A stretch of DNA of 64,000 nt, from NCBI GenBank assembly GCA_032718475.1, contig JAUCBJ010000593.1, positions 12,640-76,639 on the forward strand, read 5' to 3'. The notes under the pieces are model-generated. The model worked only from the letters and a program-made list of their open reading frames with translations. It had not been told where the DNA came from and did no database searches. The stretch is from Nemertoderma westbladi (lineage: Eukaryota; Animalia; Xenacoelomorpha). Shown here in pieces: positions 39,518 through 64,000 of the stretch. Numbering within the stretch: the stretch's first letter is position 1; each line of letters begins with the position of its first letter. The position numbers and the translations under genes were made by a program.

Positions 39518-39779
39518 AGGCTGCTGGTGCAGCTCGAGGTAAATATAATAAATACCCAGGGATATATAGTAGAAACACATTCACTGAGTTTAATTGGATT
39601 GGATGAGTCCAAAAAGTAATGGGAATCTTTTGGCGAATGTTTTCTTTAAGTAACTAATTTTATGGATACAGACATCGCACTCCGGCACTCCGGGTAAGTT
39701 AATTATGTAAAAAACATTTGGAACAAAAAGAAACAGACAAAATATATTAAACAACTGGATTTTGGGAAAGTATATGTTT

Positions 39780-40565
39780 GATTTGTAATATATCTTTATT
39801 ATCCCATAACGATGGTTTAAAAACGTTTATAAATAAATACAATATGTAAATGCCGCGCAATTTAAATAAAATATAAGATTAGGCTTTAAAATAAATGATA
39901 TGAGGCCAATAAAATATGAGTCCCTGGTATTAGAAACTTTCTGGAGAGCTAATCCAAAGCCTGGAGGTAGAAGGCCAAGCTAATTCCAGAACTTTGAGCC
40001 GGTATTTCGGAGCAGGCCGCTGCTTCACACGCGGGCTGTCCACTCCAGATAAACTACAGATACAGTTAGTAGTTGGTCGCCGGAACTTAGTGTTTCCTCA
40101 CAGTTTATGGTGGTGGCCATTCGAGATAAATTGTGCCCCGGCCCGGCGCCTTTGTTTTCACAAATCTCGTAAGTTTATCTCTGTTGAAGCTTCATCAGGG
40201 TTATCAATAACATCTAGCAATCTGGTTGTAGAATCGTACTTACTTACGCCGTACCAGATTTTATAGAAAAATTCACGGATTTTAATTACGTGTGGTGGAT
40301 GTGGCAGATTGGCGTTGGAGAACACGCTACATCCGTAGGTAGTGGCCGGGAGGCCCACAAGCGACCACAGTTTATGTGCGGGGTCAAAAGAAATGGCCGT
40401 CATCTAAACCTTGGAAGCAATCCTCATGCACGGGGCATTGCCACGGTTGTAGAGATGAGGAGACAGTCTGCCTCCTCGACGGAAATTCATAACCTTGGAT
40501 TCTCTCGGGTTAACTGTAAGGCAGTTCTCTTCACAATATGTCGATAAATCATTTAACGCGTTTTG
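39780..40565 (-). mobile_element. 5'-truncated decayed LINE (RT C-terminal region and 3' end)
   Basis: QQNALNDLSTYCEENCLTVNPRESKVMNFRRGGRL is a typical post-YADD LINE RT segment. Minus-strand AATAAA near 39795. Confidence 0.65.
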
Positions 40566-40705
40566 TTGGATCTGTGACGTATAAACCGATGCATATTTTC
40601 GCTTTGCAATCTTTAGCTGGCGTTGAAGTAGGAAGCCACGGTTTTGAACTGCGCTTAGGTTTGTGAACTGCGGAATCCGTGTGAATGTATCTTGGTGTAA
40701 TGATA

Positions 40706-43700
40706 ATGGTGTACTGATTGAGTTGTACCTGAATAAAGACACTATATTCCAGGACATGGTGTACTGATTGAGTTGTACCTGAATAAAGACACTATATTCC
40801 AGGACATGGTGTACTGATTGAGTTGTACCTGAATAACGACACTATATTCCAGGACATGGTGTACTGATTGAGTTGTACCTGAATAAAGACACTATATTCC
40901 AGGACATGGTGTACTGACTGATTGAGTTGTACCTGAATAAAGACACTATATTCCAGGACATGGTGTACTGATTGAGTTGTACCTGAATAAAGACACTATA
41001 TTCCAGGACATGGTGTACTGATTGAGTTGTACCTGAATAACGACACTATATTCCAGGACATGGTGTACTGATTGAGTTGTACCTGAATAAAGACACTATA
41101 TTCCAGGACATGGTGTACTGACTGATTGAGTTGTACCTGAATAAAGACACTATATTCCAGGACATGGTGTACTGATTGAGTTGTACCTGAATAAAGACAC
41201 TATATTCCAGGACATGGTGTACTGATTGAGTTGTACCTGAATAAAGACATTATATTCCAGGACATGGTGTACTGATTGAGTTGTACCTGAATAAAGACAC
41301 TATATTCCAGGACATGGTGTACTGACTGATTGAGTTGTACCTGAATAAAGACACTATATTCCAGGACATGGTGTACTGATTGAGTTGTACCTGAATAAAG
41401 ACACTATATTCCAGGACATGGTGTACTGATTGAGTTGTACCTGAATAAAGACACTATATTCCAGGACATGGTGTACTGATTGAGTTGTACCTGAATAAAG
41501 ACACTATATTCCAGGACATGGTGTACTGATTGAGTTGTACCTGAATAAAGACACTATATTCCAGGACATGGTGTACTGATTGAGTTGTACCTGAATAAAG
41601 ACACTATATTCCAGGACATGGTGTACTGATTGAGTTGTACCTGAATAAAGACATTATATTCCAGGACATGGTGTACTGATTGAGTTGTACCTGAATAAAG
41701 ACACTATATTCCAGGACATGGTGTACTGATTGAGTTGTACCTGAATAAAGACACTATATTCCAGGACATGGTGTACTGATTGAGTTGTACCTGAATAAAG
41801 ACACTATATTCCAGGACATGGTGTACTGATTGAGTTGTACCTGAATAAAGACACTATATTCCAGGACATGGTGTACTGACTGATTGAGTTGTACCTGAAT
41901 AAAGACACTATATTCCAGGACATGGTGTACTGATTGAGTTGTACCTGAATAAAGACACTATATTCCAGGACATGGTGTACTGACTGATTGAGTTGTACCT
42001 GAATAAAGACACTATATTCCAGGACATGGTGTACTGATTGAGTTGTACCTGAATAAAGACACTATATTCCAGGACATGGTGTACTGATTGAGTTGTACCT
42101 GAATAAAGACACTATATTCCAGGACATGGTGTACTGATTGAGTTGTACCTGAATAAAGACATTATATTCCAGGACATGGTGTACTGATTGAGTTGTACCT
42201 GAATAAAGACACTATATTCCAGGACATGGTGTACTGACTGATTGAGTTGTACCTGAATAAAGACACTATATTCCAGGACATGGTGTACTCACTGATTGAG
42301 TTGTACCTGAATAAAGACACTATATTCCAGGACATGGTGTACTGATTGAGTTGTACCTGAATAAAGACACTATATTCCAGGACATGGTGTACTGACTGAT
42401 TGAGTTGTACCTGAATAAAGACACTATATTCCAGGACATGGTGTACTGATTGAGTTGTACCTGAATAAAGACACTATATTCCAGGACATGGTGTACTGAT
42501 TGAATTGTACCTGAATAAAGACACTATATTCCAGGACATGGTGTACTGATTGAGTTGTACCTGAATAAAGACACTATATTCCAGGACATGGTGTACTGAC
42601 TGATTGAGTTGTACCTGAATAAAGACACTATATTCCAGGACATGGTGTACTGACTGATTGAGTTGTACCTGAATAAAGACACTATATTCCAGGACATGGT
42701 GTACTGATTGAGTTGTACCTGAATAAAGACACTATATTCCAGGACATATGGTGTACTCACTGATTGAGTTGTACCTGAATAAAGACACTATATTCCAGGA
42801 CATGGTGTACTGATTGAGTTGTACCTGAATAAAGACACTATATTCCAGGACATGGTGTACTGACTGATTGAGTTGTACCTGAATAAAGACACTATATTCC
42901 AGGACATGGTGTACTGATTGAGTTGTACCTGAATAAAGACACTATATTCCAGGACATGGTGTACTGATTGAATTGTACCTGAATAAAGACACTATATTCC
43001 AGGACATGGTGTACTGATTGAGTTGTACCTGAATAAAGACACTATATTCCAGGACATGGTGTACTGACTGATTGAGTTGTACCTGAATAAAGACACTATA
43101 TTCCAGGACATGGTGTACTGATTGAGTTGTACCTGAATAAAGACACTATATTCCAGGACATATGGTGTACTCACTGATTGAGTTGTACCTGAATAAAGAC
43201 ACTATATTCCAGGACATGGTGTACTGATTGAGTTGTACCTGAATAAAGACACTATATTCCAGGACATGGTGTACTGACTGATTGAGTTGTACCTGAATAA
43301 AGACACTATATTCCAGGACATGGTGTACTGATTGAATTGTACCTGAATAAAGACACTATATTCCAGGACATGGTGTACTGACTGATTGAGTTGTACCTGA
43401 ATAAAGACACTATATTCCAGGACATGGTGTACTGATTGAGTTGTACCTGAATAAAGACACTATATTCCAGGACATGGTGTACTGATTGAGTTGTACCTGA
43501 ATAAAGACACTATATTCCAGGACATGGTGTACTGATTGAGTTGTACCTGAATAAAGACACTATATTCCAGGACATGGTGTACTGATTGAGTTGTACCTGA
43601 ATAAAGACACTATATTCCAGGACATGGTGTACTGATTGAGTTGTACCTGAATAAAGACACCATATTCCAGGACATGGTGTACTGATTGAGTTGTACCTGA

Positions 43701-44094
43701 ATAAAGACACCATATTCCAGGACATGGTGTACTGATTGAGTTGTACCTGAATAAAGACACTATATTCCAGGACATGGTGTACTGATTGAGTTGTACCTGA
43801 ATAAAGACACTATATTCCAGGACATGGTGTACTGATTGAGTTGTACCTGAATAAAGACACTATATTCCAGGACATGGTGTACTGATTGAGTTGTACCTGA
43901 ATAAAGACACTATATTCCAGGACATGGTGTACTGATTGAGTTGTACCTGAATAAAGACACTATATTCCAGGACATGGTGTACTGATTGAGTTGTACCTGA
44001 ATAAAGACACTATATTCCAGGACATGGTGTACTGATTGAGTTGTACCTGAATAAAGACACTATATTCCAGGACATGGTGTACTGATTGAGTTGT
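40706..44094. repeat. 50-bp tandem array (ATGGTGTACTGATTGAGTTGTACCTGAATAAAGACACTATATTCCAGGAC), ~67 copies, with 54-bp variants
   Basis: Directly visible and highly homogeneous; no unique spacers. Confidence 0.98.
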
Positions 44095-44444
44095 TATTCG
44101 GCTGGTATTGTTTTGGTTGAAGGATAATCTTAATGGTTTGTAGTGAATGTCAATATATTTTATTTATCCATATGAAATGCTGTGTATCTTGGAATGCGAA
44201 TTACTGGTCAAGCATTATAATCGAAATTATGCAACGCATAACTGCCCTCTAATCGTATTAGCCTGAACTATTGTGCGAACGTTTTATATACGAATGTTCA
44301 GTACTTCGGAAGTTTTTTGTTTTCTACCAGTTTCATAATAAAAACTAAATTGATTGTTGGTACGAGTCGTATATGTTTGGTTATTGTGTGTATTTATTTT
44401 TAATTTATTCAGGGAGTGAATGGGAAGTGAACTGTGGTATACAG

Positions 44445-44670
44445 ACCGTTACAGACCATTACTGCCACACCGTTACAGGACCGTTACAGCCACACCGTTA
44501 CAGGACCGTTACAGCCACACCGTTACAGGACCGTTACAGCCACACCGTTACAGGACCGTTACAGCCACACCGTTACAGGACCGTTACAGCCACACCGTTA
44601 CAGGACCGTTACAGCCACACCGTTACAGGACCGTTACAGCCACACCGTTACAGGACCGTTACAGCCACAC
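44445..44670. repeat. 25-bp tandem repeat (CCGTTACAGCCACACCGTTACAGGA), ~9 copies
   Basis: Directly visible; the unit is a dimer of CCGTTACAG cores. Confidence 0.95.
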
Positions 44671-45110
44671 CCTTAATTAATTAATTATAGTAAGGTGTTT
44701 ACTTTGTAAAGTCGCTTTGTGATTCAATTCTACTGTTGTAGGTGATAGCCCTCGAGTCTCATCTACCCTGTTGTACTTCAGTAGATTGTAGAGCTTAAAA
44801 CTCATTCGGTGCTAAATTTACAATCTCGTGTTGGTGACGTTCTGGTCTGTAGTGCCGATGGTTTCCTTTTATTGACAAATTATATCGGAATTTGTAATTT
44901 TTTTCAGTGATTTCTGTGCTTTTTATCACTTTGATTTTAGTCTATTTATTTATTTAAACAAATATTTCTTGTAATATTTACTTGTAAATTATGTTTTGTA
45001 CATTAATATTATATGTTCAGATTAATTTATTTTAAACAATTATAAATAATTTGTTTGTTCAAATAATCTTAATATTTGAATAAGGTTTCCGTTCTGTAGA
45101 TTTACATAAT

Positions 45111-45514
45111 TTGAGTTAACTCACAATCAATTGAGTAAACTCACAATCAATTGAGTTATCTCACAATCAATTGAGTTAACTCACAATCAATTGAGTTAAC
45201 TCACAATCAATTGAGTTAACTAACAATCAATTGAGTTAACTCACAATCAATTGAGTTATCTCACAATCAATTGAGTAAACTCACAATCAATTGAGTTAAC
45301 TCACAATCAATTGAGTTAACTCACAATCAATTGAGTAAACTCACAATCAATTGAGTTAACTCACAATCAATTGAGTTAACTAACAATCAATTGAGTTAAC
45401 TCACAATCAATTGAGTAAACTCACAATCAATTGAGTTAACTCACAATCAATTGAGTTAACTAACAATCAATTGAGTTAACTCACAACCAATTGAGTTAAC
45501 TCACAATCAATTGA
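45111..45514. repeat. 20-bp palindrome-containing tandem repeat (TTGAGTTAACTCACAATCAA), ~20 copies
   Basis: Directly visible; contains palindromes TGAGTTAACTCA and TCAATTGA. Confidence 0.97.
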
Positions 45515-45545
45515 ATTTAATTCCAAATTAACTTGTCCAAATCAT

Positions 45546-46936
45546 TTTATTAACAACTGTTAAATCCTTGTGGTTATTATTAACAACTGTTAAATCCTTG
45601 TGGTTATTATTAACAACTGTTAAGTCCTTGCGGTTATTATTAACAACTGTTAACTCCTTGTGGTTATTATTAACAACTGTTAAATCCTTGTGGTTATTAT
45701 TAACAACTGTTAATTCCTTGTGGTTATTATTAACAACTGATAAATCCTTGTGGTTATTATTAACAACTGTTAAATCCTTGTGGTTATTATTAACAACTGT
45801 TAAATCCTTGTGGTTATTATTAACAACTGTTAAATCCTTGTGGTTATTATTAACAACTGTTAAATCCTTGTGGTTATTATTAACAACTGTTAAATCCTTG
45901 TGGTTATTATTAACAACTGTTAAATCCTTGTGGTTATTATTAACAACTGTTAAATCCTTGTGGTTATTATCAACAACTGTTAAGTCCTTGTGGTTATTAT
46001 TAACAACTGTTAAATCCTTGTGGTTATTATTAACAACTGTTAAATCCTTGTGGTTATTATTAACAACTGTTAAATCCTTGTGGTTATTATCAACAACTGT
46101 TAAGTCCTTGTGGTTATTATTAACAACTGTTAAATCCTTGTGGTTATTATTAACAACTGTTAAATCCTTGTGGTTATTATTAACAACTGTTAAATCCTTG
46201 TGGTTATTATTAACAACTGTTAAATCCTTGTGGTTATTATTAACAACTGTTAAATCCTTGTGGATATTATTAACAACTGTTAAATCCTTGTGGTTATTAT
46301 TAACAACTGTTAAGTCCTTGTGGTTATTATTAACAACTGTTAAATCCTTGTGGTTATTATTAACAACTGTTAAATCCTTGTGGTTATTATTAACAACTGT
46401 TAAATCCTTGTGGTTATTATTAACAACTGTTAAATCCTTGTGGATATTATTAACAACTGTTAAATCCTTGTGGTTATTATTAACAACTGTTAAGTCCTTG
46501 TGGTTATTATTAACAACTGTTAAATCCTTGTGGTTATTATTAACAACTGTTAAATCCTTGTGGTTATTATTAACAACTGTTAAATCCTTGTGGTTATTAT
46601 TAACAACTGTTAAATCCTTGTGGTTATTATTAACAACTGTTAAGTCCTTGCGGTTATTATTAACAACTGTTAACTCCTTGTGGTTATTATTAACAACTGT
46701 TAAATCCTTGTGGTTATTATTAACAACTGTTAAATCCTTGTGGTTATTATCAACAACTGTTAAATCCTTGTGGTTATTATTAACAACTGTTAAATCCTTG
46801 TGGTTATTATTAACAACTGTTAAATCCTTGTGGTTATTATTAACAACTGTTAAATCCTTGTGGTTATTATTAACAACTGTTAAATCCTTGTGGTTATTAT
46901 TAACAACTGTTAAATCCTTGTGGTTATTATTAACAA
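45546..46936. repeat. 30-bp tandem repeat (TTATTATTAACAACTGTTAAATCCTTGTGG), ~46 copies
   Basis: Directly visible; produces the WLLLTTVKSL ORF. Confidence 0.98.
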
Positions 46937-47109
46937 GATTTTATCATTACTTATTTTACTCATTCCTAATATATAGATTTTAATAATTAGTATTGAATAT
47001 GAATATGAATATGAAAATGAATAACGATTATCTTTTATATTATACTGTGGTGTATACTCGGTGGAGTAAAGTAAAAAGTACTATTTTCTTTGGCCGTTAG
47101 GCCAGTGAT

Positions 47110-48535
47110 TACATTACGCACAAAGTCTGACGACTTATTTCCATTGCGGTCCCCCAGAACTTTACTCGGGACCCCTATTTCAGCGAAAAGTCATTCCACG
47201 AAAATCATGTGCTACCTCTGATCTAGTTGGGATTGGCTGGGATGATACTCTGCCTCATAAATTTTACCCCGAATGGGAAAAATGGCTTAGAATGGCTTAG
47301 AATGGATTAGAAATGGCTTAGAATGGCTTAGAAATGACTTAGATACATTGAATATGTTAACTATTCCTAGGAGTTTTCCACCTGTTGGTTTTGGGGATCC
47401 CTGCATCCAAGAGCTGCATGTATTTGCTGGTGATTCTGATGGTGGAATAGGAGGAGTAATATATTGGAGATCTGTTAACATAAGTGGACAAAGTTCTGTA
47501 GGGTTCGTGGAGGGAAGTTCAAAGTTAGCTCCTCATGCTCGCACCTCAGTTCCCAGATTAGAACTCTGCGCAGCTGTGGACATTGCTTCACTTGCTGCTG
47601 AAGTTTATAATGCATTCAAACATAAACCAAGTGAAGTTATATTTTATTCGGATAGCTCTATAGATATGGATAGATATTGGGCTGTTGTGTTTGTCTGTTT
47701 GGTATCTCATGTCATACCCATTGAACTATTACCTTCACTAGATACTGTTGCCTTCGGCGCTTTCTTGCAATTCGTGGGCATTGCCAACATTTTCGAAGTG
47801 ATCAAGGATCCAATTTTATTGGTAGCTACAATCAAGACAATAAGGAATTGTTGAATCTAGCTGAGGTTAATAACTATATCAACTCTAAAGGTATCAATTG
47901 GACGTTCAATCCACCTCATGGCTCCCACTTCGGTGGTCTCTGGTAGAGAAACATTGGGTCTATTCGCAGGATCCTCAATGGCACTCTTCTCCTTCTTGGA
48001 CCTGGAGGGGTTTCTCGTGACGAACTAAATACATATTTGTTGGAAGTATTTGCCTATAATTAATGCAACTCCACTTTGGGAAGTATCAGGAGACCCAAAT
48101 GACCCTCGCCTCTTATCTCCATCCATGTTATTACTGGGAATCAGAATCTTCATCCACCTCCCATTGGCGAATTCACTGAAGACGATATTATTGCATATGG
48201 AAAGCGTAGATATCATCGTGTTCAATGTCATGCTAAACAATTCTGGTCTAGATGGCGAATTTCCAATCTCCAGATAATGCAAGTTCGTTCCAAGTGGTTG
48301 AAAGAAAATGAAAACTTCAAGGTTGGAGATCTTGTGTTGATTCGGGAAAAAGGGGTCCAACGTAATGACTGGCCTTTTGGTCGCGTCATCAGTATTAAAC
48401 TTAGTGCAGATGATCTAGTTCGTTCATGCTCTGTCAGAGTGCCAAAATGTTGCAAAGATGGTGGCACTAATCCAAAGGTCAAACTACATGACTGACTATG
48501 ACCGACTTATCCATGAACTTGTGTTGTTATCCCGC
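47110..48535 (+). mobile_element. Old, fragmented BEL/Pao pol remnant (RNase H, integrase, C-terminal domain)
   Basis: ELHVFAGDS..GGVIY...SKLAP..TSVPRLELCAA (Pao RNase H); WAVVFVCLVS..IELLPSLDT and WTFNPPHGSHFGGLW (integrase); KWLKENENFKVGDLVLIRE..WPFGRVI..DDLVRS (DUF5641-like). Stops, frameshifts and an internal 10-bp repeat (AATGGCTTAG). Confidence 0.88.
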
Positions 48536-48718
48536 CCCCGCCCTGACTGGTGGCAATGACAAAACCTGAATAAAAGTAAATCTTGTTACTGAACAGATAA
48601 TGTTATTGAGAAACAAACAAACTTAAGTTTTTGTCCCATTGGCATCTCGCCTTGTTGGATATATTTTTTTATATTTTTATTGTGCAATTTATTTTTATGC
48701 TTGCTTTGATTTCCATCA

Positions 48719-48812
48719 TACACCCAGAGAAGTGGCAAACCCTCCGGTCCATCTCGCTGTCGAGGTACACCCAGATAAGTGGCAAACCCTCCGGTCCATC
48801 TCGCTGTCGAGG
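48719..48812. repeat. 46-bp direct duplication (CACCCAGAxAAGTGGCAAACCCTCCGGTCCATCTCGCTGTCGAGG)
   Basis: Two adjacent copies. Confidence 0.85.
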
Positions 48813-48991
48813 AGTCACAAAGTGGCGTCGTTGACATAGCTCGGTACACTATCAACTAACAGATTGAAAGGGACATTTCCCAGATAATGTGAGCTGGATT
48901 CAATTTGGAGCTCAGAACCTCTAGGGAAATGTTTCCTTTTCTATTGATATTCAGGTAATAAATCATCGTAATAAACTCTATCTCTGGTGCT

Positions 48992-51900
48992 TTATGTGGG
49001 TAGTCAGGGAAACACACCTCCGTTATATGGTTGGTCAGGGATACACACCTCCGTTATATGGTTGGTCAGGGATACACACCTCCGTTATATGGGTAGTCAG
49101 GGAAACACACCTCCGTTATATGGGTAGTCAGGGAAACACACATCCGTTATACGGGTAGTCAGGGAAACACACCTCCGTTATATGGCTAGTCTGTAGGGAA
49201 ACAGACCTCCGTTATATGGGTAGTCTGTAGGGAAACATACCTCCGTTATATGGGTAGTCAGGGAAACACACATCCGTTATACGGGTAGTCAGGGAAACAC
49301 ACCTCCGTTATATGGCTAGTCTGTAGGGAAACAGACCTCCGTTATATGGGTAGTCTGTAGGGAAACATACCTCCGTTATATGGGTAGTCAGGGAAACACA
49401 CCTCCGTTATATGGGTAGTCTGTAGGGAAACACACCTCCGTTATATGGGTAGTCAGGGAAACACACCTCCGTTATATGGGTAGACAGGGAAACACACCTC
49501 CGTTATATGGGTAGTCAGGGAAACACACCTCCGTTATATGGGTAGTCAGGGAAACACACATCCGTTATACGGGTAGTCAGGGAAACACACCTCCGTTATA
49601 TGGCTAGTCTGTAGGGAAACAGACCTCCGTTATATGGGTAGTCTGTAGGGAAACAGACCTCCGTTATATGGGTAGTCTGTAGGGAAACACACCTCCGTTA
49701 TATGGGTAGTCTGTAGGGAAACATACCTCCGTTATATGGGTAGTCAGGGAAACACACCTCCGTTATATGGGTAGTCAAGGAAACACACCTCCGTTATATG
49801 GGTAGTCTGTAGGGAAACAGACCTCCGTTATATGGGTAGTCAGGGAAACACACCTCCGTTATATGGGTAGTCAGGGAAACACACCTCCGTTATATGGGTA
49901 GTCAGGGAAACACACCTCCGTTATATGGGTAGTCATCTGTTGGGAAACACACCTCCGTTATATGGGTAGTCTGTAGGGAAACACACCTCCGTTATATGGG
50001 TAGTCTGGAGGGAAACACACCTTCGTTATATGGGTAGTCAGGGAAACACACCTCCGTTATATGGGTAGTCAGGGAAACACACCTCCGTTATATGGGTAGT
50101 CAGGGAAACACACCTCCGATATATGGGTTGTCTGTTGGGAAACACACCTCCGTTATATGGGTAGTCTGTAGGGAAACACACCTCCGTTATATGGGTTGTC
50201 TGTAGGGAAACGCACCTCCGTTATATGGGTAGTCTGTAGGGAAACACACCTTCGTTATATGGGTAGTCAGGGAAACACACCTTCGTTATATGGGTAGTCA
50301 GGGAAACACACCTCCGTTATATGGGTAGTCTGGAGGGAAACACACCTTCGTTATATGGGTAGTCAGGGAAACACACCTCCGTTATATGGGTAGTCAGGGA
50401 AACACACCTCCGTTATATGGGTAGTCAGGGAAACACACCTCCGTTATATGGGTTGTCTGTTGGGAAACACACCTCCGTTATATGGGTAGTCTGTAGGGAA
50501 ACACACCTCCGTTATATGGGTTGTCTGTAGGGAAACACACCTCCGTTATATGGGTAGTCTGTAGGGAAACACACCTCCGTTATATGGGTAGTCTGTAGGG
50601 AAACACACCTCCGTTATATGGGTAGCCTGTAGGGAAACACACCTTCGTTATATGGGTAGTCAGGCAGTCAGGGAAACACTCCTCCGTTATATGGGTAGTC
50701 AGGGAAACACACCTCCGTTATATGGGTAGTCAGGGAAACACACCTCCGTTATATGGATAGTCAGGGAAAAACACCACCGTTATATGGGTAGTCAGGGAAA
50801 CACCTCCGTTATATGGGTAGTCAGGCAGTCAGGGAAACACACCCTCTTTATATGGGAGTCAGGGAAACACACCTCCGTTATATGAGTAGTCTGTAGGGAA
50901 ACAGACCTCCGTTATATGGGTAGTCAGGGAAACACACCACCGTTATATGGGTAGTCAGGGAAACACACCTCCGTTATATGGGAAGTCTGTAAGGAAACAC
51001 ACCTCCGTTATATGGGTAGTCTGTAGGGAAACACACCTCCGTTATATGTGTTGTCTGTAGGGAAACACATCTCCTTTATATGGGTAGTCTGTAGGGAAAC
51101 ATACCTCCGTTATATGGGTTGTCTGTAGGGAAACACACCTCCGTTGTATGGGTAGTCTGTAGGGAAACACATCTCCTTTATATGGGTAGTCTGTAGGGAA
51201 ACATACCTCCGTTATATGGGTTGTCTGTAGGGAAACACACCTCCGTTGTATGGGTAGTCTGTAGGGAAACACATCTCCTTTATATGGGTAGTCTGTAGGG
51301 AAACATACCTCCGTTTGGTTGTCTGTAGGGAAACACACCTCCGTTATATGGGTTGTCTGTAGGGAAACACATCTCCTTTATATGGGTGGTCTGTAGGGAA
51401 ACGCACCTCCGTTATATGGGTTGTCTGTAGGGAAACGCACCTCCGTTATATGGGTAGTCTGTAGGAAAACATACCTCCGTTATATGGGTAGTCTGTAGGG
51501 AAGCATACCTCCGTTATATGGGTTGTCTGTAGGGAAACACACCTCCATTATATGGGTAATCTGTAGGGAAACACACCTCCGTTATATGGGTAGTCTGTAG
51601 GGAAACACATCTCCTTTATATGGGTTGTCTGTAGGGAAACACACCTCCGTTATATGGGTAGTCTGTAGGGAAACACACCTCCGTTATATGGGTTGTCTGT
51701 AGGAAAACATACCTCCGTTATATGGGTAGTCTGTAGGGAAACACACCTCCGTTATATGGGTTGTCTGTAGGGGAAACACACCTCCGTTATATGGATAGTC
51801 TGCAGGAAAACATACCTCCGTTATATGGGTAGTCTGTAGGGAAGCATACCTCCGTTATATGGATAGTCTGTAGGGAAACACACCTCCGTTATATGGGTAG

Positions 51901-52540
51901 TCTGTAGGGAAACATACCTCCGTTATATGGGTAGTCTGTAGGGAAACACACCTCCGTTATATGGGTAGTCTGTAGGAAAACATACCTCCGTTATATGGGT
52001 AGTCTGTAGGGAAACACACCTCCGTTATATGGGTTGTCTGTAGGGAAACACACCTCCGTTATATGGGTTGTCTGTAGGGAAACACACCTCCGTTATATGG
52101 GTAGTCTGTAGGGAAACACACCTCCGTTATATGGGTAGTCCGTAGGGAAACACACCTCCGTTATTTGGGTTGTCTGTAGGGAAACGCACCTCCGTTATAT
52201 GGGTAGTCTGTAGGAAAACATACCTCCGTTATATGGGTAGTCTGTAGGGAAGCATACCTCCGTTATATGGGTAGTCTGTAGGGAAACGCACCTCCGTTAT
52301 ATGGGTTGTCTGTAGGGAAACACACCTCCGTTATATGGGTAGTCTGTAGGGAAACATACCTCCGTTATATGGGTAGTCTGTAGGGAAGCATACCTCCGTT
52401 ATATGGGTAGTCTGTAGGGAAACGCACCTCCGTTATATGGGTTGTCTGTAGGGAAACACACCTCCGTTATATGGGTAGTCTGTAGGGAAACATACCTCCG
52501 TTATATGGGTTGTCTGTAGGGAAACACACCTCCGTTATAC
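48992..52540. repeat. 31/34-bp minisatellite (TTATATGGGTAGTC[TGT]AGGGAAACACACCTCCG), ~105 copies
   Basis: Directly visible; two length variants. Confidence 0.97.
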
Positions 52541-53387
52541 GGGCCACCTGTGGGAACCATAATGCTAGCCCTACTGAAATAGGTCCTGTAGGCCGTGCAG
52601 AGTACTGACAAGGCGCATATTTATCTAATTATCTCTATATTTAGTTAATAAAGTTAAGTAAATAAATCGTTAGTTAATTAAATATTAAAAATTATTAAGA
52701 AAAAAAAGCGGAATAAATACAACAAAAATACTTGGTGATAGACAGTAATGAACAGAAAACCCAAAATAGTTAACCAGTAAATTATCTAAAATAATTAATA
52801 ATAATAAGTGAATTGTTGTGGGGTGAGTGACGCGGTGAATTAAATATAGAATGTAAATAGGACAATATGATAACGCTCTCCAATATAGTCCAAAATAATT
52901 ACTTACCAGATCATATAAAATATCAACAATTAATTCTTATTTCAGGTCAATCAGATGATTGAATCAGTCTGTAAAAATAAAATAGAAAAAATATATAATA
53001 AAATTAATCAAATAAAAACATAAAATAGCCTCGCGCAGATGCAAAACCTTGCAAAATTCAAACGCTCATCAAGCTATTCTTTAACAAAAAGTCATATTCT
53101 GTTATTTGGAAGTCGTGCATGTATGTGGCGTGGCCAGCTTTCAATCAGTATAAAAAATCACTATTAGTTTGAAGAATAACTTCGATGTAACAGCCAGCCA
53201 GCTATATTACATATATTATATTATGATTAATTAAAATTTTTATTATTATTATTATTATTATTAATTGATTAAAATTATTATGACTAACTGTATTTACTTT
53301 TTAATATAATATGATTAGGTTTTATTTACTAATGTATTTTTAGTGTATCTTCTCGTCCTACTGTAAGTAATTTTTCATTCTTCCCAG

Positions 53388-53538
53388 ATTAAGTTGGTGA
53401 TTTCCTTCGGTGGAGTTTCGCAGATTAACAGTTTCGTTAGCGGCAGCGACGCTTCGGATATGGAATGGCATTCTGTGAAAATCGAGAGAAGGGGCAAGAT
53501 TGTTTATCTTTATTTCGATAATGCCAAGGTGCAAGAAG
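53388..53538 (+). CDS. Next exon of the laminin-G domain protein (central part of LamG)
   Basis: TTTTTCATTCTTCCCAG| acceptor and GAAG|GTTAGT donor. Phase-0 start matches the end of exon 29939-30141. Encodes IKLVISFGGVSQINSFVSGSDASDMEWHSVKIERRGKIVYLYFDNAKVQE, matching the LamG D.xWH.V.I.R...L.xD motif. Not in the supplied ORF track. Confidence 0.88.
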
Positions 53539-56500
53539 GTTAGTAGTTGATAATGCCAAGGTGCAAGAAGGTTAGTAGTTGATAATGCCAAGGTGCAAGA
53601 AGGTTAGTAGTTGATAATGCCAAGGTGCAAGAAGGTTAGTAGTTGATAATGCCAAGGTGCAAGAAGGTTAGTAGTTGATAATGCCAAGGTGCAAGAAGGT
53701 TAGTAGTTGATAATGCCAAGGTGCAAGAAGGTTAGTAGTTGATAATGCCAAGGTGCAAGAAGGTTAGTAGTTGATAATGCCAAGGTGCAAGAAGGTTAGT
53801 AGTTGATAATGCCAAGGTGCAAGAAGGTTAGTAGTTGATAATGCCAAGGTGCAAGAAGGTTAGTAGTTGATAATGCCAAGGTGCAAGAAGGTTAGTAGTT
53901 GATAATGCCAAGGTGCAAGAAGGTTAGTAGTTGATAATGCCAAGGTGCAAGAAGGTTAGTAGTTGATAATGCCAAGGTGCAAGAAGGTTAGTAGTTGATA
54001 ATGCCAAGGTGCAAGAAGGTTAGTAGTTGATAATGCCAAGGTGCAAGAAGGTTAGTAGTTGATAATGCCAAGGTGCAAGAAGGTTAGTAGTTGATAATGC
54101 CAAGGTGCAAGAAGGTTAGTAGTTGATAATGCCAAGGTGCAAGAAGGTTAGTAGTTGATAATGCCAAGGTGCAAGAAGGTTAGTAGTTGATAATGCCAAG
54201 GTGCAAGAAGGTTAGTAGTTGATAATGCCAAGGTGCAAGAAGGTTAGTAGTTGATAATGCCAAGGTGCAAGAAGGTTAGTAGTTGATAATGCCAAGGTGC
54301 AAGAAGGTTAGTAGTTGATAATGCCAAGGTGCAAGAAGGTTAGTAGTTGATAATGCCAAGGTGCAAGAAGGTTAGTAGTTGATAATGCCAAGGTGCAAGA
54401 AGGTTAGTAGTTGATAATGCCAAGGTGCAAGAAGGTTAGTAGTTGATAATGCCAAGGTGCAAGAAGGTTAGTAGTTGATAATGCCAAGGTGCAAGAAGGT
54501 TAGTAGTTGATAATGCCAAGGTGCAAGAAGGTTAGTAGTTGATAATGCCAAGGTGCAAGAAGGTTAGTAGTTGATAATGCCAAGGTGCAAGAAGGTTAGT
54601 AGTTGATAATGCCAAGGTGCAAGAAGGTTAGTAGTTGATAATGCCAAGGTGCAAGAAGGTTAGTAGTTGATAATGCCAAGGTGCAAGAAGGTTAGTAGTT
54701 GATAATGCCAAGGTGCAAGAAGGTTAGTAGTTGATAATGCCAAGGTGCAAGAAGGTTAGTAGTTGATAATGCCAAGGTGCAAGAAGGTTAGTAGTTGATA
54801 ATGCCAAGGTGCAAGAAGGTTAGTAGTTGATAATGCCAAGGTGCAAGAAGGTTAGTAGTTGATAATGCCAAGGTGCAAGAAGGTTAGTAGTTGATAATGC
54901 CAAGGTGCAAGAAGGTTAGTAGTTGATAATGCCAAGGTGCAAGAAGGTTAGTAGTTGATAATGCCAAGGTGCAAGAAGGTTAGTAGTTGATAATGCCAAG
55001 GTGCAAGAAGGTTAGTAGTTGATAATGCCAAGGTGCAAGAAGGTTAGTAGTTGATAATGCCAAGGTGCAAGAAGGTTAGTAGTTGATAATGCCAAGGTGC
55101 AAGAAGGTTAGTAGTTGATAATGCCAAGGTGCAAGAAGGTTAGTAGTTGATAATGCCAAGGTGCAAGAAGGTTAGTAGTTGATAATGCCAAGGTGCAAGA
55201 AGGTTAGTAGTTGATAATGCCAAGGTGCAAGAAGGTTAGTAGTTGATAATGCCAAGGTGCAAGAAGGTTAGTAGTTGATAATGCCAAGGTGCAAGAAGGT
55301 TAGTAGTTGATAATGCCAAGGTGCAAGAAGGTTAGTAGTTGATAATGCCAAGGTGCAAGAAGGTTAGTAGTTGATAATGCCAAGGTGCAAGAAGGTTAGT
55401 AGTTGATAATGCCAAGGTGCAAGAAGGTTAGTAGTTGATAATGCCAAGGTGCAAGAAGGTTAGTAGTTGATAATGCCAAGGTGCAAGAAGGTTAGTAGTT
55501 GATAATGCCAAGGTGCAAGAAGGTTAGTAGTTGATAATGCCAAGGTGCAAGAAGGTTAGTAGTTGATAATGCCAAGGTGCAAGAAGGTTAGTAGTTGATA
55601 ATGCCAAGGTGCAAGAAGGTTAGTAGTTGATAATGCCAAGGTGCAAGAAGGTTAGTAGTTGATAATGCCAAGGTGCAAGAAGGTTAGTAGTTGATAATGC
55701 CAAGGTGCAAGAAGGTTAGTAGTTGATAATGCCAAGGTGCAAGAAGGTTAGTAGTTGATAATGCCAAGGTGCAAGAAGGTTAGTAGTTGATAATGCCAAG
55801 GTGCAAGAAGGTTAGTAGTTGATAATGCCAAGGTGCAAGAAGGTTAGTAGTTGATAATGCCAAGGTGCAAGAAGGTTAGTAGTTGATAATGCCAAGGTGC
55901 AAGAAGGTTAGTAGTTGATAATGCCAAGGTGCAAGAAGGTTAGTAGTTGATAATGCCAAGGTGCAAGAAGGTTAGTAGTTGATAATGCCAAGGTGCAAGA
56001 AGGTTAGTAGTTGATAATGCCAAGGTGCAAGAAGGTTAGTAGTTGATAATGCCAAGGTGCAAGAAGGTTAGTAGTTGATAATGCCAAGGTGCAAGAAGGT
56101 TAGTAGTTGATAATGCCAAGGTGCAAGAAGGTTAGTAGTTGATAATGCCAAGGTGCAAGAAGGTTAGTAGTTGATAATGCCAAGGTGCAAGAAGGTTAGT
56201 AGTTGATAATGCCAAGGTGCAAGAAGGTTAGTAGTTGATAATGCCAAGGTGCAAGAAGGTTAGTAGTTGATAATGCCAAGGTGCAAGAAGGTTAGTAGTT
56301 GATAATGCCAAGGTGCAAGAAGGTTAGTAGTTGATAATGCCAAGGTGCAAGAAGGTTAGTAGTTGATAATGCCAAGGTGCAAGAAGGTTAGTAGTTGATA
56401 ATGCCAAGGTGCAAGAAGGTTAGTAGTTGATAATGCCAAGGTGCAAGAAGGTTAGTAGTTGATAATGCCAAGGTGCAAGAAGGTTAGTAGTTGATAATGC

Positions 56501-59500
56501 CAAGGTGCAAGAAGGTTAGTAGTTGATAATGCCAAGGTGCAAGAAGGTTAGTAGTTGATAATGCCAAGGTGCAAGAAGGTTAGTAGTTGATAATGCCAAG
56601 GTGCAAGAAGGTTAGTAGTTGATAATGCCAAGGTGCAAGAAGGTTAGTAGTTGATAATGCCAAGGTGCAAGAAGGTTAGTAGTTGATAATGCCAAGGTGC
56701 AAGAAGGTTAGTAGTTGATAATGCCAAGGTGCAAGAAGGTTAGTAGTTGATAATGCCAAGGTGCAAGAAGGTTAGTAGTTGATAATGCCAAGGTGCAAGA
56801 AGGTTAGTAGTTGATAATGCCAAGGTGCAAGAAGGTTAGTAGTTGATAATGCCAAGGTGCAAGAAGGTTAGTAGTTGATAATGCCAAGGTGCAAGAAGGT
56901 TAGTAGTTGATAATGCCAAGGTGCAAGAAGGTTAGTAGTTGATAATGCCAAGGTGCAAGAAGGTTAGTAGTTGATAATGCCAAGGTGCAAGAAGGTTAGT
57001 AGTTGATAATGCCAAGGTGCAAGAAGGTTAGTAGTTGATAATGCCAAGGTGCAAGAAGGTTAGTAGTTGATAATGCCAAGGTGCAAGAAGGTTAGTAGTT
57101 GATAATGCCAAGGTGCAAGAAGGTTAGTAGTTGATAATGCCAAGGTGCAAGAAGGTTAGTAGTTGATAATGCCAAGGTGCAAGAAGGTTAGTAGTTGATA
57201 ATGCCAAGGTGCAAGAAGGTTAGTAGTTGATAATGCCAAGGTGCAAGAAGGTTAGTAGTTGATAATGCCAAGGTGCAAGAAGGTTAGTAGTTGATAATGC
57301 CAAGGTGCAAGAAGGTTAGTAGTTGATAATGCCAAGGTGCAAGAAGGTTAGTAGTTGATAATGCCAAGGTGCAAGAAGGTTAGTAGTTGATAATGCCAAG
57401 GTGCAAGAAGGTTAGTAGTTGATAATGCCAAGGTGCAAGAAGGTTAGTAGTTGATAATGCCAAGGTGCAAGAAGGTTAGTAGTTGATAATGCCAAGGTGC
57501 AAGAAGGTTAGTAGTTGATAATGCCAAGGTGCAAGAAGGTTAGTAGTTGATAATGCCAAGGTGCAAGAAGGTTAGTAGTTGATAATGCCAAGGTGCAAGA
57601 AGGTTAGTAGTTGATAATGCCAAGGTGCAAGAAGGTTAGTAGTTGATAATGCCAAGGTGCAAGAAGGTTAGTAGTTGATAATGCCAAGGTGCAAGAAGGT
57701 TAGTAGTTGATAATGCCAAGGTGCAAGAAGGTTAGTAGTTGATAATGCCAAGGTGCAAGAAGGTTAGTAGTTGATAATGCCAAGGTGCAAGAAGGTTAGT
57801 AGTTGATAATGCCAAGGTGCAAGAAGGTTAGTAGTTGATAATGCCAAGGTGCAAGAAGGTTAGTAGTTGATAATGCCAAGGTGCAAGAAGGTTAGTAGTT
57901 GATAATGCCAAGGTGCAAGAAGGTTAGTAGTTGATAATGCCAAGGTGCAAGAAGGTTAGTAGTTGATAATGCCAAGGTGCAAGAAGGTTAGTAGTTGATA
58001 ATGCCAAGGTGCAAGAAGGTTAGTAGTTGATAATGCCAAGGTGCAAGAAGGTTAGTAGTTGATAATGCCAAGGTGCAAGAAGGTTAGTAGTTGATAATGC
58101 CAAGGTGCAAGAAGGTTAGTAGTTGATAATGCCAAGGTGCAAGAAGGTTAGTAGTTGATAATGCCAAGGTGCAAGAAGGTTAGTAGTTGATAATGCCAAG
58201 GTGCAAGAAGGTTAGTAGTTGATAATGCCAAGGTGCAAGAAGGTTAGTAGTTGATAATGCCAAGGTGCAAGAAGGTTAGTAGTTGATAATGCCAAGGTGC
58301 AAGAAGGTTAGTAGTTGATAATGCCAAGGTGCAAGAAGGTTAGTAGTTGATAATGCCAAGGTGCAAGAAGGTTAGTAGTTGATAATGCCAAGGTGCAAGA
58401 AGGTTAGTAGTTGATAATGCCAAGGTGCAAGAAGGTTAGTAGTTGATAATGCCAAGGTGCAAGAAGGTTAGTAGTTGATAATGCCAAGGTGCAAGAAGGT
58501 TAGTAGTTGATAATGCCAAGGTGCAAGAAGGTTAGTAGTTGATAATGCCAAGGTGCAAGAAGGTTAGTAGTTGATAATGCCAAGGTGCAAGAAGGTTAGT
58601 AGTTGATAATGCCAAGGTGCAAGAAGGTTAGTAGTTGATAATGCCAAGGTGCAAGAAGGTTAGTAGTTGATAATGCCAAGGTGCAAGAAGGTTAGTAGTT
58701 GATAATGCCAAGGTGCAAGAAGGTTAGTAGTTGATAATGCCAAGGTGCAAGAAGGTTAGTAGTTGATAATGCCAAGGTGCAAGAAGGTTAGTAGTTGATA
58801 ATGCCAAGGTGCAAGAAGGTTAGTAGTTGATAATGCCAAGGTGCAAGAAGGTTAGTAGTTGATAATGCCAAGGTGCAAGAAGGTTAGTAGTTGATAATGC
58901 CAAGGTGCAAGAAGGTTAGTAGTTGATAATGCCAAGGTGCAAGAAGGTTAGTAGTTGATAATGCCAAGGTGCAAGAAGGTTAGTAGTTGATAATGCCAAG
59001 GTGCAAGAAGGTTAGTAGTTGATAATGCCAAGGTGCAAGAAGGTTAGTAGTTGATAATGCCAAGGTGCAAGAAGGTTAGTAGTTGATAATGCCAAGGTGC
59101 AAGAAGGTTAGTAGTTGATAATGCCAAGGTGCAAGAAGGTTAGTAGTTGATAATGCCAAGGTGCAAGAAGGTTAGTAGTTGATAATGCCAAGGTGCAAGA
59201 AGGTTAGTAGTTGATAATGCCAAGGTGCAAGAAGGTTAGTAGTTGATAATGCCAAGGTGCAAGAAGGTTAGTAGTTGATAATGCCAAGGTGCAAGAAGGT
59301 TAGTAGTTGATAATGCCAAGGTGCAAGAAGGTTAGTAGTTGATAATGCCAAGGTGCAAGAAGGTTAGTAGTTGATAATGCCAAGGTGCAAGAAGGTTAGT
59401 AGTTGATAATGCCAAGGTGCAAGAAGGTTAGTAGTTGATAATGCCAAGGTGCAAGAAGGTTAGTAGTTGATAATGCCAAGGTGCAAGAAGGTTAGTAGTT

Positions 59501-62500
59501 GATAATGCCAAGGTGCAAGAAGGTTAGTAGTTGATAATGCCAAGGTGCAAGAAGGTTAGTAGTTGATAATGCCAAGGTGCAAGAAGGTTAGTAGTTGATA
59601 ATGCCAAGGTGCAAGAAGGTTAGTAGTTGATAATGCCAAGGTGCAAGAAGGTTAGTAGTTGATAATGCCAAGGTGCAAGAAGGTTAGTAGTTGATAATGC
59701 CAAGGTGCAAGAAGGTTAGTAGTTGATAATGCCAAGGTGCAAGAAGGTTAGTAGTTGATAATGCCAAGGTGCAAGAAGGTTAGTAGTTGATAATGCCAAG
59801 GTGCAAGAAGGTTAGTAGTTGATAATGCCAAGGTGCAAGAAGGTTAGTAGTTGATAATGCCAAGGTGCAAGAAGGTTAGTAGTTGATAATGCCAAGGTGC
59901 AAGAAGGTTAGTAGTTGATAATGCCAAGGTGCAAGAAGGTTAGTAGTTGATAATGCCAAGGTGCAAGAAGGTTAGTAGTTGATAATGCCAAGGTGCAAGA
60001 AGGTTAGTAGTTGATAATGCCAAGGTGCAAGAAGGTTAGTAGTTGATAATGCCAAGGTGCAAGAAGGTTAGTAGTTGATAATGCCAAGGTGCAAGAAGGT
60101 TAGTAGTTGATAATGCCAAGGTGCAAGAAGGTTAGTAGTTGATAATGCCAAGGTGCAAGAAGGTTAGTAGTTGATAATGCCAAGGTGCAAGAAGGTTAGT
60201 AGTTGATAATGCCAAGGTGCAAGAAGGTTAGTAGTTGATAATGCCAAGGTGCAAGAAGGTTAGTAGTTGATAATGCCAAGGTGCAAGAAGGTTAGTAGTT
60301 GATAATGCCAAGGTGCAAGAAGGTTAGTAGTTGATAATGCCAAGGTGCAAGAAGGTTAGTAGTTGATAATGCCAAGGTGCAAGAAGGTTAGTAGTTGATA
60401 ATGCCAAGGTGCAAGAAGGTTAGTAGTTGATAATGCCAAGGTGCAAGAAGGTTAGTAGTTGATAATGCCAAGGTGCAAGAAGGTTAGTAGTTGATAATGC
60501 CAAGGTGCAAGAAGGTTAGTAGTTGATAATGCCAAGGTGCAAGAAGGTTAGTAGTTGATAATGCCAAGGTGCAAGAAGGTTAGTAGTTGATAATGCCAAG
60601 GTGCAAGAAGGTTAGTAGTTGATAATGCCAAGGTGCAAGAAGGTTAGTAGTTGATAATGCCAAGGTGCAAGAAGGTTAGTAGTTGATAATGCCAAGGTGC
60701 AAGAAGGTTAGTAGTTGATAATGCCAAGGTGCAAGAAGGTTAGTAGTTGATAATGCCAAGGTGCAAGAAGGTTAGTAGTTGATAATGCCAAGGTGCAAGA
60801 AGGTTAGTAGTTGATAATGCCAAGGTGCAAGAAGGTTAGTAGTTGATAATGCCAAGGTGCAAGAAGGTTAGTAGTTGATAATGCCAAGGTGCAAGAAGGT
60901 TAGTAGTTGATAATGCCAAGGTGCAAGAAGGTTAGTAGTTGATAATGCCAAGGTGCAAGAAGGTTAGTAGTTGATAATGCCAAGGTGCAAGAAGGTTAGT
61001 AGTTGATAATGCCAAGGTGCAAGAAGGTTAGTAGTTGATAATGCCAAGGTGCAAGAAGGTTAGTAGTTGATAATGCCAAGGTGCAAGAAGGTTAGTAGTT
61101 GATAATGCCAAGGTGCAAGAAGGTTAGTAGTTGATAATGCCAAGGTGCAAGAAGGTTAGTAGTTGATAATGCCAAGGTGCAAGAAGGTTAGTAGTTGATA
61201 ATGCCAAGGTGCAAGAAGGTTAGTAGTTGATAATGCCAAGGTGCAAGAAGGTTAGTAGTTGATAATGCCAAGGTGCAAGAAGGTTAGTAGTTGATAATGC
61301 CAAGGTGCAAGAAGGTTAGTAGTTGATAATGCCAAGGTGCAAGAAGGTTAGTAGTTGATAATGCCAAGGTGCAAGAAGGTTAGTAGTTGATAATGCCAAG
61401 GTGCAAGAAGGTTAGTAGTTGATAATGCCAAGGTGCAAGAAGGTTAGTAGTTGATAATGCCAAGGTGCAAGAAGGTTAGTAGTTGATAATGCCAAGGTGC
61501 AAGAAGGTTAGTAGTTGATAATGCCAAGGTGCAAGAAGGTTAGTAGTTGATAATGCCAAGGTGCAAGAAGGTTAGTAGTTGATAATGCCAAGGTGCAAGA
61601 AGGTTAGTAGTTGATAATGCCAAGGTGCAAGAAGGTTAGTAGTTGATAATGCCAAGGTGCAAGAAGGTTAGTAGTTGATAATGCCAAGGTGCAAGAAGGT
61701 TAGTAGTTGATAATGCCAAGGTGCAAGAAGGTTAGTAGTTGATAATGCCAAGGTGCAAGAAGGTTAGTAGTTGATAATGCCAAGGTGCAAGAAGGTTAGT
61801 AGTTGATAATGCCAAGGTGCAAGAAGGTTAGTAGTTGATAATGCCAAGGTGCAAGAAGGTTAGTAGTTGATAATGCCAAGGTGCAAGAAGGTTAGTAGTT
61901 GATAATGCCAAGGTGCAAGAAGGTTAGTAGTTGATAATGCCAAGGTGCAAGAAGGTTAGTAGTTGATAATGCCAAGGTGCAAGAAGGTTAGTAGTTGATA
62001 ATGCCAAGGTGCAAGAAGGTTAGTAGTTGATAATGCCAAGGTGCAAGAAGGTTAGTAGTTGATAATGCCAAGGTGCAAGAAGGTTAGTAGTTGATAATGC
62101 CAAGGTGCAAGAAGGTTAGTAGTTGATAATGCCAAGGTGCAAGAAGGTTAGTAGTTGATAATGCCAAGGTGCAAGAAGGTTAGTAGTTGATAATGCCAAG
62201 GTGCAAGAAGGTTAGTAGTTGATAATGCCAAGGTGCAAGAAGGTTAGTAGTTGATAATGCCAAGGTGCAAGAAGGTTAGTAGTTGATAATGCCAAGGTGC
62301 AAGAAGGTTAGTAGTTGATAATGCCAAGGTGCAAGAAGGTTAGTAGTTGATAATGCCAAGGTGCAAGAAGGTTAGTAGTTGATAATGCCAAGGTGCAAGA
62401 AGGTTAGTAGTTGATAATGCCAAGGTGCAAGAAGGTTAGTAGTTGATAATGCCAAGGTGCAAGAAGGTTAGTAGTTGATAATGCCAAGGTGCAAGAAGGT

Positions 62501-64000
62501 TAGTAGTTGATAATGCCAAGGTGCAAGAAGGTTAGTAGTTGATAATGCCAAGGTGCAAGAAGGTTAGTAGTTGATAATGCCAAGGTGCAAGAAGGTTAGT
62601 AGTTGATAATGCCAAGGTGCAAGAAGGTTAGTAGTTGATAATGCCAAGGTGCAAGAAGGTTAGTAGTTGATAATGCCAAGGTGCAAGAAGGTTAGTAGTT
62701 GATAATGCCAAGGTGCAAGAAGGTTAGTAGTTGATAATGCCAAGGTGCAAGAAGGTTAGTAGTTGATAATGCCAAGGTGCAAGAAGGTTAGTAGTTGATA
62801 ATGCCAAGGTGCAAGAAGGTTAGTAGTTGATAATGCCAAGGTGCAAGAAGGTTAGTAGTTGATAATGCCAAGGTGCAAGAAGGTTAGTAGTTGATAATGC
62901 CAAGGTGCAAGAAGGTTAGTAGTTGATAATGCCAAGGTGCAAGAAGGTTAGTAGTTGATAATGCCAAGGTGCAAGAAGGTTAGTAGTTGATAATGCCAAG
63001 GTGCAAGAAGGTTAGTAGTTGATAATGCCAAGGTGCAAGAAGGTTAGTAGTTGATAATGCCAAGGTGCAAGAAGGTTAGTAGTTGATAATGCCAAGGTGC
63101 AAGAAGGTTAGTAGTTGATAATGCCAAGGTGCAAGAAGGTTAGTAGTTGATAATGCCAAGGTGCAAGAAGGTTAGTAGTTGATAATGCCAAGGTGCAAGA
63201 AGGTTAGTAGTTGATAATGCCAAGGTGCAAGAAGGTTAGTAGTTGATAATGCCAAGGTGCAAGAAGGTTAGTAGTTGATAATGCCAAGGTGCAAGAAGGT
63301 TAGTAGTTGATAATGCCAAGGTGCAAGAAGGTTAGTAGTTGATAATGCCAAGGTGCAAGAAGGTTAGTAGTTGATAATGCCAAGGTGCAAGAAGGTTAGT
63401 AGTTGATAATGCCAAGGTGCAAGAAGGTTAGTAGTTGATAATGCCAAGGTGCAAGAAGGTTAGTAGTTGATAATGCCAAGGTGCAAGAAGGTTAGTAGTT
63501 GATAATGCCAAGGTGCAAGAAGGTTAGTAGTTGATAATGCCAAGGTGCAAGAAGGTTAGTAGTTGATAATGCCAAGGTGCAATAAGGTTAGTTGTTGATA
63601 ATGCCAAGGTGCAAGAAGGTTAGTAGTTGATAATGCCAAGGTGCAATAAGGTTAGTTGTTGATAATGCCAAGGTGCAATAAGGTTAGTTGTTGATAATGC
63701 CAAGGTGCAATAAGGTTAGTAGTTGATAATGCCAAGGTGCAAGAAGGTTAGTAGTTGATAATGCCAAGGTGCAAGAAGGTTAGTAGTTGATAATGCCAAG
63801 GTGCAATAAGGTTAGTAGTTGATAATGCCAAGGTGCAATAAGGTTAGTAGTTGATAATGCCAAGGTGCAAGAAGGTTAGTAGTTGATAATGCCAAGGTGC
63901 AAGAAGGTTAGTAGTTGATAATGCCAAGGTGCAAGAAGGTTAGTAGTTGATAATGCCAAGGTGCAATAAGGTTAGTTGTTGATAATGCCAAGGTGCAATA
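53517..64000. repeat. 32-bp near-perfect tandem array (GATAATGCCAAGGTGCAAGAAGGTTAGTAGTT), ~327 copies, runs off the right edge
   Basis: Directly visible; variant units seen only after ~63580. Confidence 0.99.

Follow-up and report, generated by a model that had tools for sequence, protein, structure and literature searches.

What becomes of a coding exon when its last codons and its splice donor are repeated hundreds of times in the intron that follows? The question is raised by a stretch of 64,000 nucleotides of the Nemertoderma westbladi genome (Xenacoelomorpha; assembly GCA_032718475.1, contig JAUCBJ010000593.1, positions 12,640 to 76,639 of the forward strand), hereafter called the window, whose first letter is position 1 in all coordinates given here. 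An exon for part of a laminin-G (LamG) domain, exon B in Table 1, passes there directly into a 32-bp satellite, each unit of which carries a copy of the donor at which the exon ends. To answer the question, the structure of the repeat, its presence in sequencing reads and the donor used by the spliced RNA are examined below, together with comparable arrays described in other animals.

Structure of the Array

The array occupies positions 53517-64000 of the forward strand as 328 in-register units of 32 bp, the last of them cut at 20 bp by the end of the window, past which the repeat continues. Each unit joins the last 22 nt of exon B to the first 10 nt of the next intron, and unit 1 (53517-53548) spans the authentic exon-intron boundary, as revealed by the spliced contig described below. 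The start lies at exactly 53517, the base just before unit 1 being other than the one that ends a unit. An earlier note on this DNA had already read the repeat as an exon end fused to the beginning of its intron, with the true exon end in the first unit and some 326 further donors behind it, which is borne out by the register of the units, by the position of the cut and by a donor core present 327 times in the array.

Table 1. Features of the LamG gene and its satellite, in window coordinates.
Feature	Position	Strand	Remarks
Exon A, upstream coding exon, first half of the same laminin-G domain	29939..30141	+	3′ end shown by X4; 5′ end predicted from its acceptor
GT-AG intron, 23,246 bp	30142..53387	+	Holds two intronless genes, retroelement remnants and seven other tandem repeats (20-53 bp)
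Exon B, coding, middle of the laminin-G (LNS) domain	53388..53538	+	Phase 0 to phase 1; strong acceptor (14/15 pyrimidines); covered end to end by X4 record 17
Donor 1, authentic 5′ splice site	53536..53546	+	Cut 53538/53539; U1 pairing motif matches 8/11
In-frame TAG	53541..53543	+	Part of any transcript spliced from donor 2 or later
Invariant part of the array, units 1-314	53517..63564	+	0 differences in 10,048 bp; lag-32 identity 1.0000
Variant-unit zone	63565..64000	+	From unit 315; first changed base 63583

The uniformity of the repeat is extreme, with 320 of the 328 units identical and a TRF description of 327.6 copies, 99% matches and 0% indels. The place where it begins to break down agrees with the earlier reading of a nearly invariant array until about 63580 (Table 1); among the last 14 units, eight are changed at unit position 19, and four of these eight also at position 29. 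No other array measured in the window is as uniform (lag identity 0.9989, the next reaching 0.979), and because of this highest lag identity the 32-bp array is probably younger, or more actively homogenised, than the others measured. None of the 12-mers of the unit was found elsewhere upstream in the window, nor on the other strand.

Donors were scored with a motif of 11 places, which we take to represent pairing with U1. By this measure, the donor at 30141 that ends exon A equals donor 1, and every unit contains in addition a weak second AG/GT with 4/11 matches as compared with 8/11 for the true donor. The array thereby offers a strong donor every 32 bp (62 per 2 kb). On the other hand, the unit lacks AATAAA and ATTAAA, as well as any AG preceded by more than 7 pyrimidines in 15 places. 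Its sense strand is 66% purine, with a GC skew of 0.54. Recursive splicing, or the use of new exons inside the array, was rejected as unlikely on the grounds that no AG of the unit bears a pyrimidine tract, and a coding satellite was rejected as well, stops occurring within 96 bp in every frame of the array.

The Host Exon and Its Gene

Exon B matches the Pfam family Laminin_G_2 (PF02210) with an E-value of 5.6e-5 (24 bits, cut-off 22.9), and at E<=1 its only relatives in the PDB are four chains of neurexin-1-alpha (E 2.2e-8 for the whole chain, 0.16 for the best single stretch). Among six candidates for longer, full-length relatives of exon B, none was found at E<=10. Exon A gave no match in the Pfam search and resembles laminin alpha-1 (E 1.3e-4) and neurexin-1-alpha (E 1e-3). 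Judged by these likenesses, the host would be a LamG-bearing, neurexin-like gene, with no closer name.

The first codon of the unit encodes an Asp which, in the alignment, falls opposite the Asp at the end of this strand of neurexin LNS domains, and the first residues of the unit fall inside the match; therefore, the satellite derives from the exon and not the exon from the satellite. The insertion of a foreign satellite was rejected, the unit itself supplying the seven codons with which the LamG exon ends. Reading through donor 1 gives Glu-Gly-stop, which confirms the earlier statement that a later donor would add an immediate stop (Table 1). In mRNAs spliced from later donors, this stop would stand 27, 59, 91 and so on nt before the junction.

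The Repeat in Sequencing Reads

Six sequencing runs of one organism, from at least three studies, cover the region, and five of them (X1 to X5) were examined, X6 (share 0.06) being left out. In X1 (2023, sample S1, study P1), a single-copy contig runs from the unique flank into unit 1 and ends at 53546, the flank itself forming one unbranched contig; in X2 (2019, sample S2, study P2), an equivalent contig ends at 53544. Both ends lie where a graph of 31-letter words would be expected to branch on entering the repeat. Contigs of head-to-tail units occur in X1, X2 and X5, and in 11 contigs of X2 the loose letters before 53517 are those of a unit end. One of the samples S1 and S2 may be the source of the assembly, in which case the other is independent of it.

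With regard to the total size of the repeat, three contigs of X1 tile the unit at a depth of 25,000 each, as compared with 14.4 for the flank (about 1,700 times), and this repeated value looks like a ceiling. It corresponds roughly to 1,700 units or more genome-wide (at least 55 kb), a rough figure open to library bias and to contributions from other loci, and summed contig depths are not copy numbers. Variant units appear in X1 in contigs with depths of 1,441, 350, 195 and 112; the main unit far outweighs them, and the reads thus represent a mostly uniform repeat. Under the 31-letter rule for a bridge, no contig reaches across from the flank to unit 2, and the length of the array at this locus is therefore not fixed by the reads.

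The earlier note had asked whether the array could be an over-expansion made by the assembler. This is unlikely, because the X1 reads contain more units than the window does, and mostly identical ones; moreover, DNA-type runs of two studies contain both the flank continuing into unit 1 and, at very high depth, units placed head to tail. As for the very recent expansion that was also suggested, the invariance of the first 314 units is compatible with an array that is young or actively homogenised, but the words 'very recent' are doubtful for a repeat present in samples from two studies that lie four years apart.

Splicing at the First Donor

The key transcript evidence is the only contig of run X4 at this place (record 17; 288 letters, depth 27.3), which aligns to 53386-53539. 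The 25 letters preceding exon B in this record are exactly those of 30115-30139 (25/25), which joins exon A to exon B. The exon A side of the junction amounts to only 27 letters, under the 31-letter bridge rule, with an exact match that falls on the predicted sites. After exon B, the record continues for 109 letters that are not intron; a 12-mer taken from them does not occur in the window, and the 30 downstream letters displayed, read in the frame of exon B, stay open over nine codons. The expression of exon B, on which the earlier interpretation of the locus depended, is thus supported by its splicing at both ends, to an exon lying 23 kb upstream and, from donor 1, to an open exon downstream.

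Altogether, one of one spliced contigs leaves exon B at donor 1 (X4, sample S3), in a type of data where contigs drop rare forms, so that a minor use of later donors is compatible with it. None of the six runs is listed as RNA, and X4 is taken as cDNA-derived solely from this spliced contig. Neither the array (53540-53572) nor the unique flank in the intron is covered by a contig of X4, meaning either that S3 is without the array or that array RNA is absent from the library. S3 is a third sample, neither S1 nor S2, and the contig may come from a copy of the gene without the expansion. X3 and X5, from the sample of X2, have no cover on exon B.

Other Tandem Repeats in the Window

The 32-bp satellite lies in repeat-rich surroundings. 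Other tandem arrays cover 38% of positions 1-53516, with units of 38, 53, 53, 50, 25, 20, 30, 47 and 34 bp and from 2 to over 100 copies. In eight of these repeat units, which do not include the large 53-bp family, no 14-mer was found in common with DNA outside their own array. Such a pattern points to the frequent birth of repeats by local tandem duplication, followed by growth. A crude chance model, fed with 10 births (counting the 32-bp array), 33.3 kb of seed DNA, two donors and a single window, gives 2.3% per such window for a birth that spans a donor; therefore, many donor-spanning arrays would be expected in a large genome.

Regarding other sequences in the window, the neighbouring PGM2 has its best full-length relatives at about 55% identity, spread across many animal phyla, and no close relative. 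An open reading frame at 40407-40748 of the reverse strand, beside the 50-bp array, gave no credible match in Pfam or in the PDB, and presumably resembles the end of a LINE reverse transcriptase.

Comparison with Known Donor-Bearing Repeats

The LamG satellite is a very large case of an already known class, that of human F7 and of the lancelet 'mirages', in a genome which makes minisatellites readily. It shows three of the features that define donor-spanning minisatellites, namely, a first unit across the boundary, head-to-tail donors in the next intron and a coding, spliced host exon.

For the 37-bp VNTR in intron 7 of human F7, mutation of 50 constructs revealed an oriented 5′-to-3′ choice among identical donors and established that the pseudo-sites are functional (PMC1557585). 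As in the LamG gene, the first F7 unit lies across the exon-intron boundary with identical donors after it; of the F7 donors only the most upstream is used, as is also the case in LMNB2 and PDGF. Unlike the LamG array, with at least 328 units and 22 exonic bases, F7 has 5-9 units with 4 exonic bases (PMC1557585). The same layout is found in the donor-spanning minisatellites of human 6-16, CBS, LMNB2 and PDGF, with 10-26 units; in 6-16 and CBS two additional donors serve as well, whereas the single LamG contig shows none (PMC1557585).

In lancelets, the 'mirage' minisatellites of Adh3 and of the globins BflGb6 and BflGb9 leave regular splicing undisturbed (PMC3087553). Here too an invertebrate carries an exon-intron boundary in tandem copies, with variants that differ between the interior and the ends of the array, but BflGb6 has 3-6 units of 150-160 bp which are 81-100% alike, in contrast with the hundreds of short and near-identical units of the LamG array (PMC3087553).

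The closest parallel in size is the 25-bp VNTR in intron 18 of ABCA7, which also holds a donor within the unit, that of exon 18, and in its longest alleles measures 10,678 bp (~427 units), about as much as the array does within the window; retention of one unit occurs and leads to a premature stop, as it would in the LamG gene (PMC5954066). Longer ABCA7 arrays go with lower expression and exon skipping (PMC5954066). Unlike the LamG array, the ABCA7 unit as described there begins at the GT and contains no exon sequence, its units vary, and the effects of length have been measured (PMC5954066). The LamG array is nearly invariant by comparison and, as far as read depth indicates, may be several times longer. 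A narrow literature search, confined to papers outside subscription, found no published donor-spanning array longer than that of ABCA7. Finally, the chicken LL2R is also a tandem repeat with donors in excess over acceptors and few poly(A) signals (bioRxiv 10.64898/2026.03.19.712899), features which the LamG unit reproduces in its surplus of donors over acceptors and its lack of both poly(A) hexamers.

Origin and Consequences of the Array

The explanation that we consider probable is that a minisatellite grew from the gene's own exon end and donor, that the first donor is still the one used, and that all other copies are removed as intron with the protein unchanged. The repeat would have been born by local tandem duplication, the same process as for the other arrays of the window, and would have grown by unequal exchange, with recent expansion or ongoing homogenisation accounting for the near-perfect identity of its units. 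A duplication reaching from inside the exon past the donor keeps the exon and donor of copy 1 intact and would be tolerated; if the first donor wins, it costs nothing, because that copy is left as it was. Exon B would be defined during transcription between its strong acceptor and the first donor, and the repeat would leave with the intron. The choice of the first donor would come about through exon definition and co-transcriptional commitment in the 5′-to-3′ direction, as tested for F7, a step that we infer because of the X4 contig and of the F7 mutation results, the latter obtained in mammalian cells and not in this animal. Rare use of a later donor would yield a stop-bearing mRNA that nonsense-mediated decay (NMD) would remove, which makes of it a leak and not a control circuit. 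We thus regard the locus as a donor-repeat array of very large size, most likely harmless, with the reservation that harmlessness is not guaranteed at such a size, given the lower expression and exon skipping that go with long ABCA7 arrays (PMC5954066) and the further donors used in 6-16 and CBS (PMC1557585).

The earlier note had offered a more active role for the array, in the tuning of expression through NMD, in the sequestration of U1 or in the disruption of the allele. These suggestions find no support in the sole spliced contig, which uses donor 1 in frame, and published arrays of this type use the first donor by default, while the surroundings are full of unrelated arrays. A related possibility, which we judge unlikely, is that a long allele dampens its gene in the manner of ABCA7, cutting the amount of full-length mRNA as a by-product, perhaps one that segregates as an expression variant. 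Such a loss could come from later donors and NMD, from skipping of the next exon or from polymerase lost in tens of kb of purine-rich repeat, as suggested by the purine content and GC skew of the sense strand. Any later donor brings with it the TAG at 53541-53543; ABCA7, with arrays as long as the one in the window, shows one-unit retention with a frameshift and an expression that falls with length (PMC5954066), and the allele behind the X4 contig may lack the expansion. The only transcript evidence nevertheless uses donor 1 in frame, and the repeat is present in samples of two studies, with a single unbranched flank contig in X1.

The idea that the hundreds to thousands of donors in the nascent intron act as a landing strip for U1 snRNP, gathering an snRNP focus or aiding the polymerase and thereby allowing long growth, appears quite improbable to us. 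It would fit a unit with one strong donor, no pyrimidine-led AG and no poly(A) hexamer, and the precedent of LL2R, whose repeat RNA has >5 predicted donors in each 2 kb and, according to a preprint (10.64898/2026.03.19.712899), brings snRNAs to the site where it is transcribed. LL2R, however, is described as a separate non-coding unit with its own promoter, and the preceding intron of the LamG gene has long arrays of its own, which are not built of donors and yet are transcribed through, as the union of exons A and B indicates. A dead allele, silenced or truncated by the expansion in the assembled individual, with the spliced contig coming from another allele, is very improbable. Sample S3 may carry a different allele and the downstream exons lie outside the window, but both exons, A and B, keep an open frame and intact splice sites, the repeat occurs in the samples of two studies, and much larger satellite introns are reportedly spliced in other animals. 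Hardly credible, lastly, is a short local array whose length was inflated or homogenised by the assembler. The 314 identical units and the lack of a bridging contig speak for it, whereas in X1 the depth of the unit contigs exceeds that of the flank some 1,700-fold, with the main unit far above its variants.

Biological Meaning

What may be out of the ordinary at this locus is the possible total of 1,700 or more units. The finding suggests that, in a distant animal, the choice of the first donor may hold against hundreds of identical competitors. A bolder reading, to which we give little credence, would see here the largest donor-spanning array described, a U1-loading focus within an intron whose length sets the output of a neurexin-like cell-surface gene; if true, it would be a natural and extreme test of commitment to the first donor. 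Should most of the 1,700 or more donors (55 kb or more) reside here and be transcribed, every transcript in the making would take up U1 snRNPs by the hundred and form with them a focus tethered to the gene. Moreover, if an effect of length were found, or if donor-bearing arrays were enriched or longer across the genome, the growth of satellites would be tied to the binding of U1 and to the passage of the polymerase through repeat-filled introns.

Genes and repeats in and around the 23-kb LamG intron

Two intact and intronless genes, coding for an M20 peptidase and for phosphoglucomutase-2 (PGM2), are nested within the 23-kb intron of the laminin-G (LamG) gene, where they lie in a head to head arrangement with a spacing of 2 kb, PGM2 sharing the strand of its host gene. 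Further along the intron, 12 kb of sequence (40706-52543) hold six unrelated tandem repeats with units of 50, 25, 20, 30, 47 and 34 bp and copy numbers from 2 to 107, each of them confined within the window to its own site. Taken together, they range stepwise from a plain duplication up to an extended array.

Features of the window
Feature	Position	Strand	Remarks
15-kb element with terminal direct repeats	3934-19011		interrupts 53-bp satellite
M20 peptidase gene	34466-35704	-	Pfam PF01546, PF07687
PGM2 gene	37724-39517	+	all four PGM domains
BEL/Pao retrotransposon remnant, broken	47291-48492		Peptidase_A17 (E 6e-14), DUF5641 (E 5e-21)
Very high-copy dispersed repeat, short stretch	52790-52885		intron, shortly before LamG exon 53388-53538
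Very high-copy dispersed repeat, short stretch	53000-53070		as preceding

The 15-kb element

The direct repeats at both ends of this element measure ~1.2 kb and have 918 20-mers in common, from 3934 and 17829 onward. A 1,535-codon ORF, which matches DUF1759 and weakly an aspartyl protease in Pfam, encodes a BEL/Pao-like gag. Three more long open stretches follow one another in a single frame (13708-14826, 14827-16098 and 16099-17523), all without a convincing Pfam match.

Read depth of the array and of the dispersed repeats

In sequencing runs X1 and X2, which come from two studies, the summed depth of the first dispersed repeat stretch was thousands of times, and that of the second ~100 times, the depth of the single-copy flank running into the 32-bp donor-spanning array. 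Run X3 is on record as the same sample as X2. The summed depth of the array (53525-53559) was ~500 in X3 versus ~159,000 in X2, whereas the dispersed repeat at 52790-52885 reached equal depth in both runs. Library bias is the simplest cause of this low value; alternatively, the array may be under-represented.
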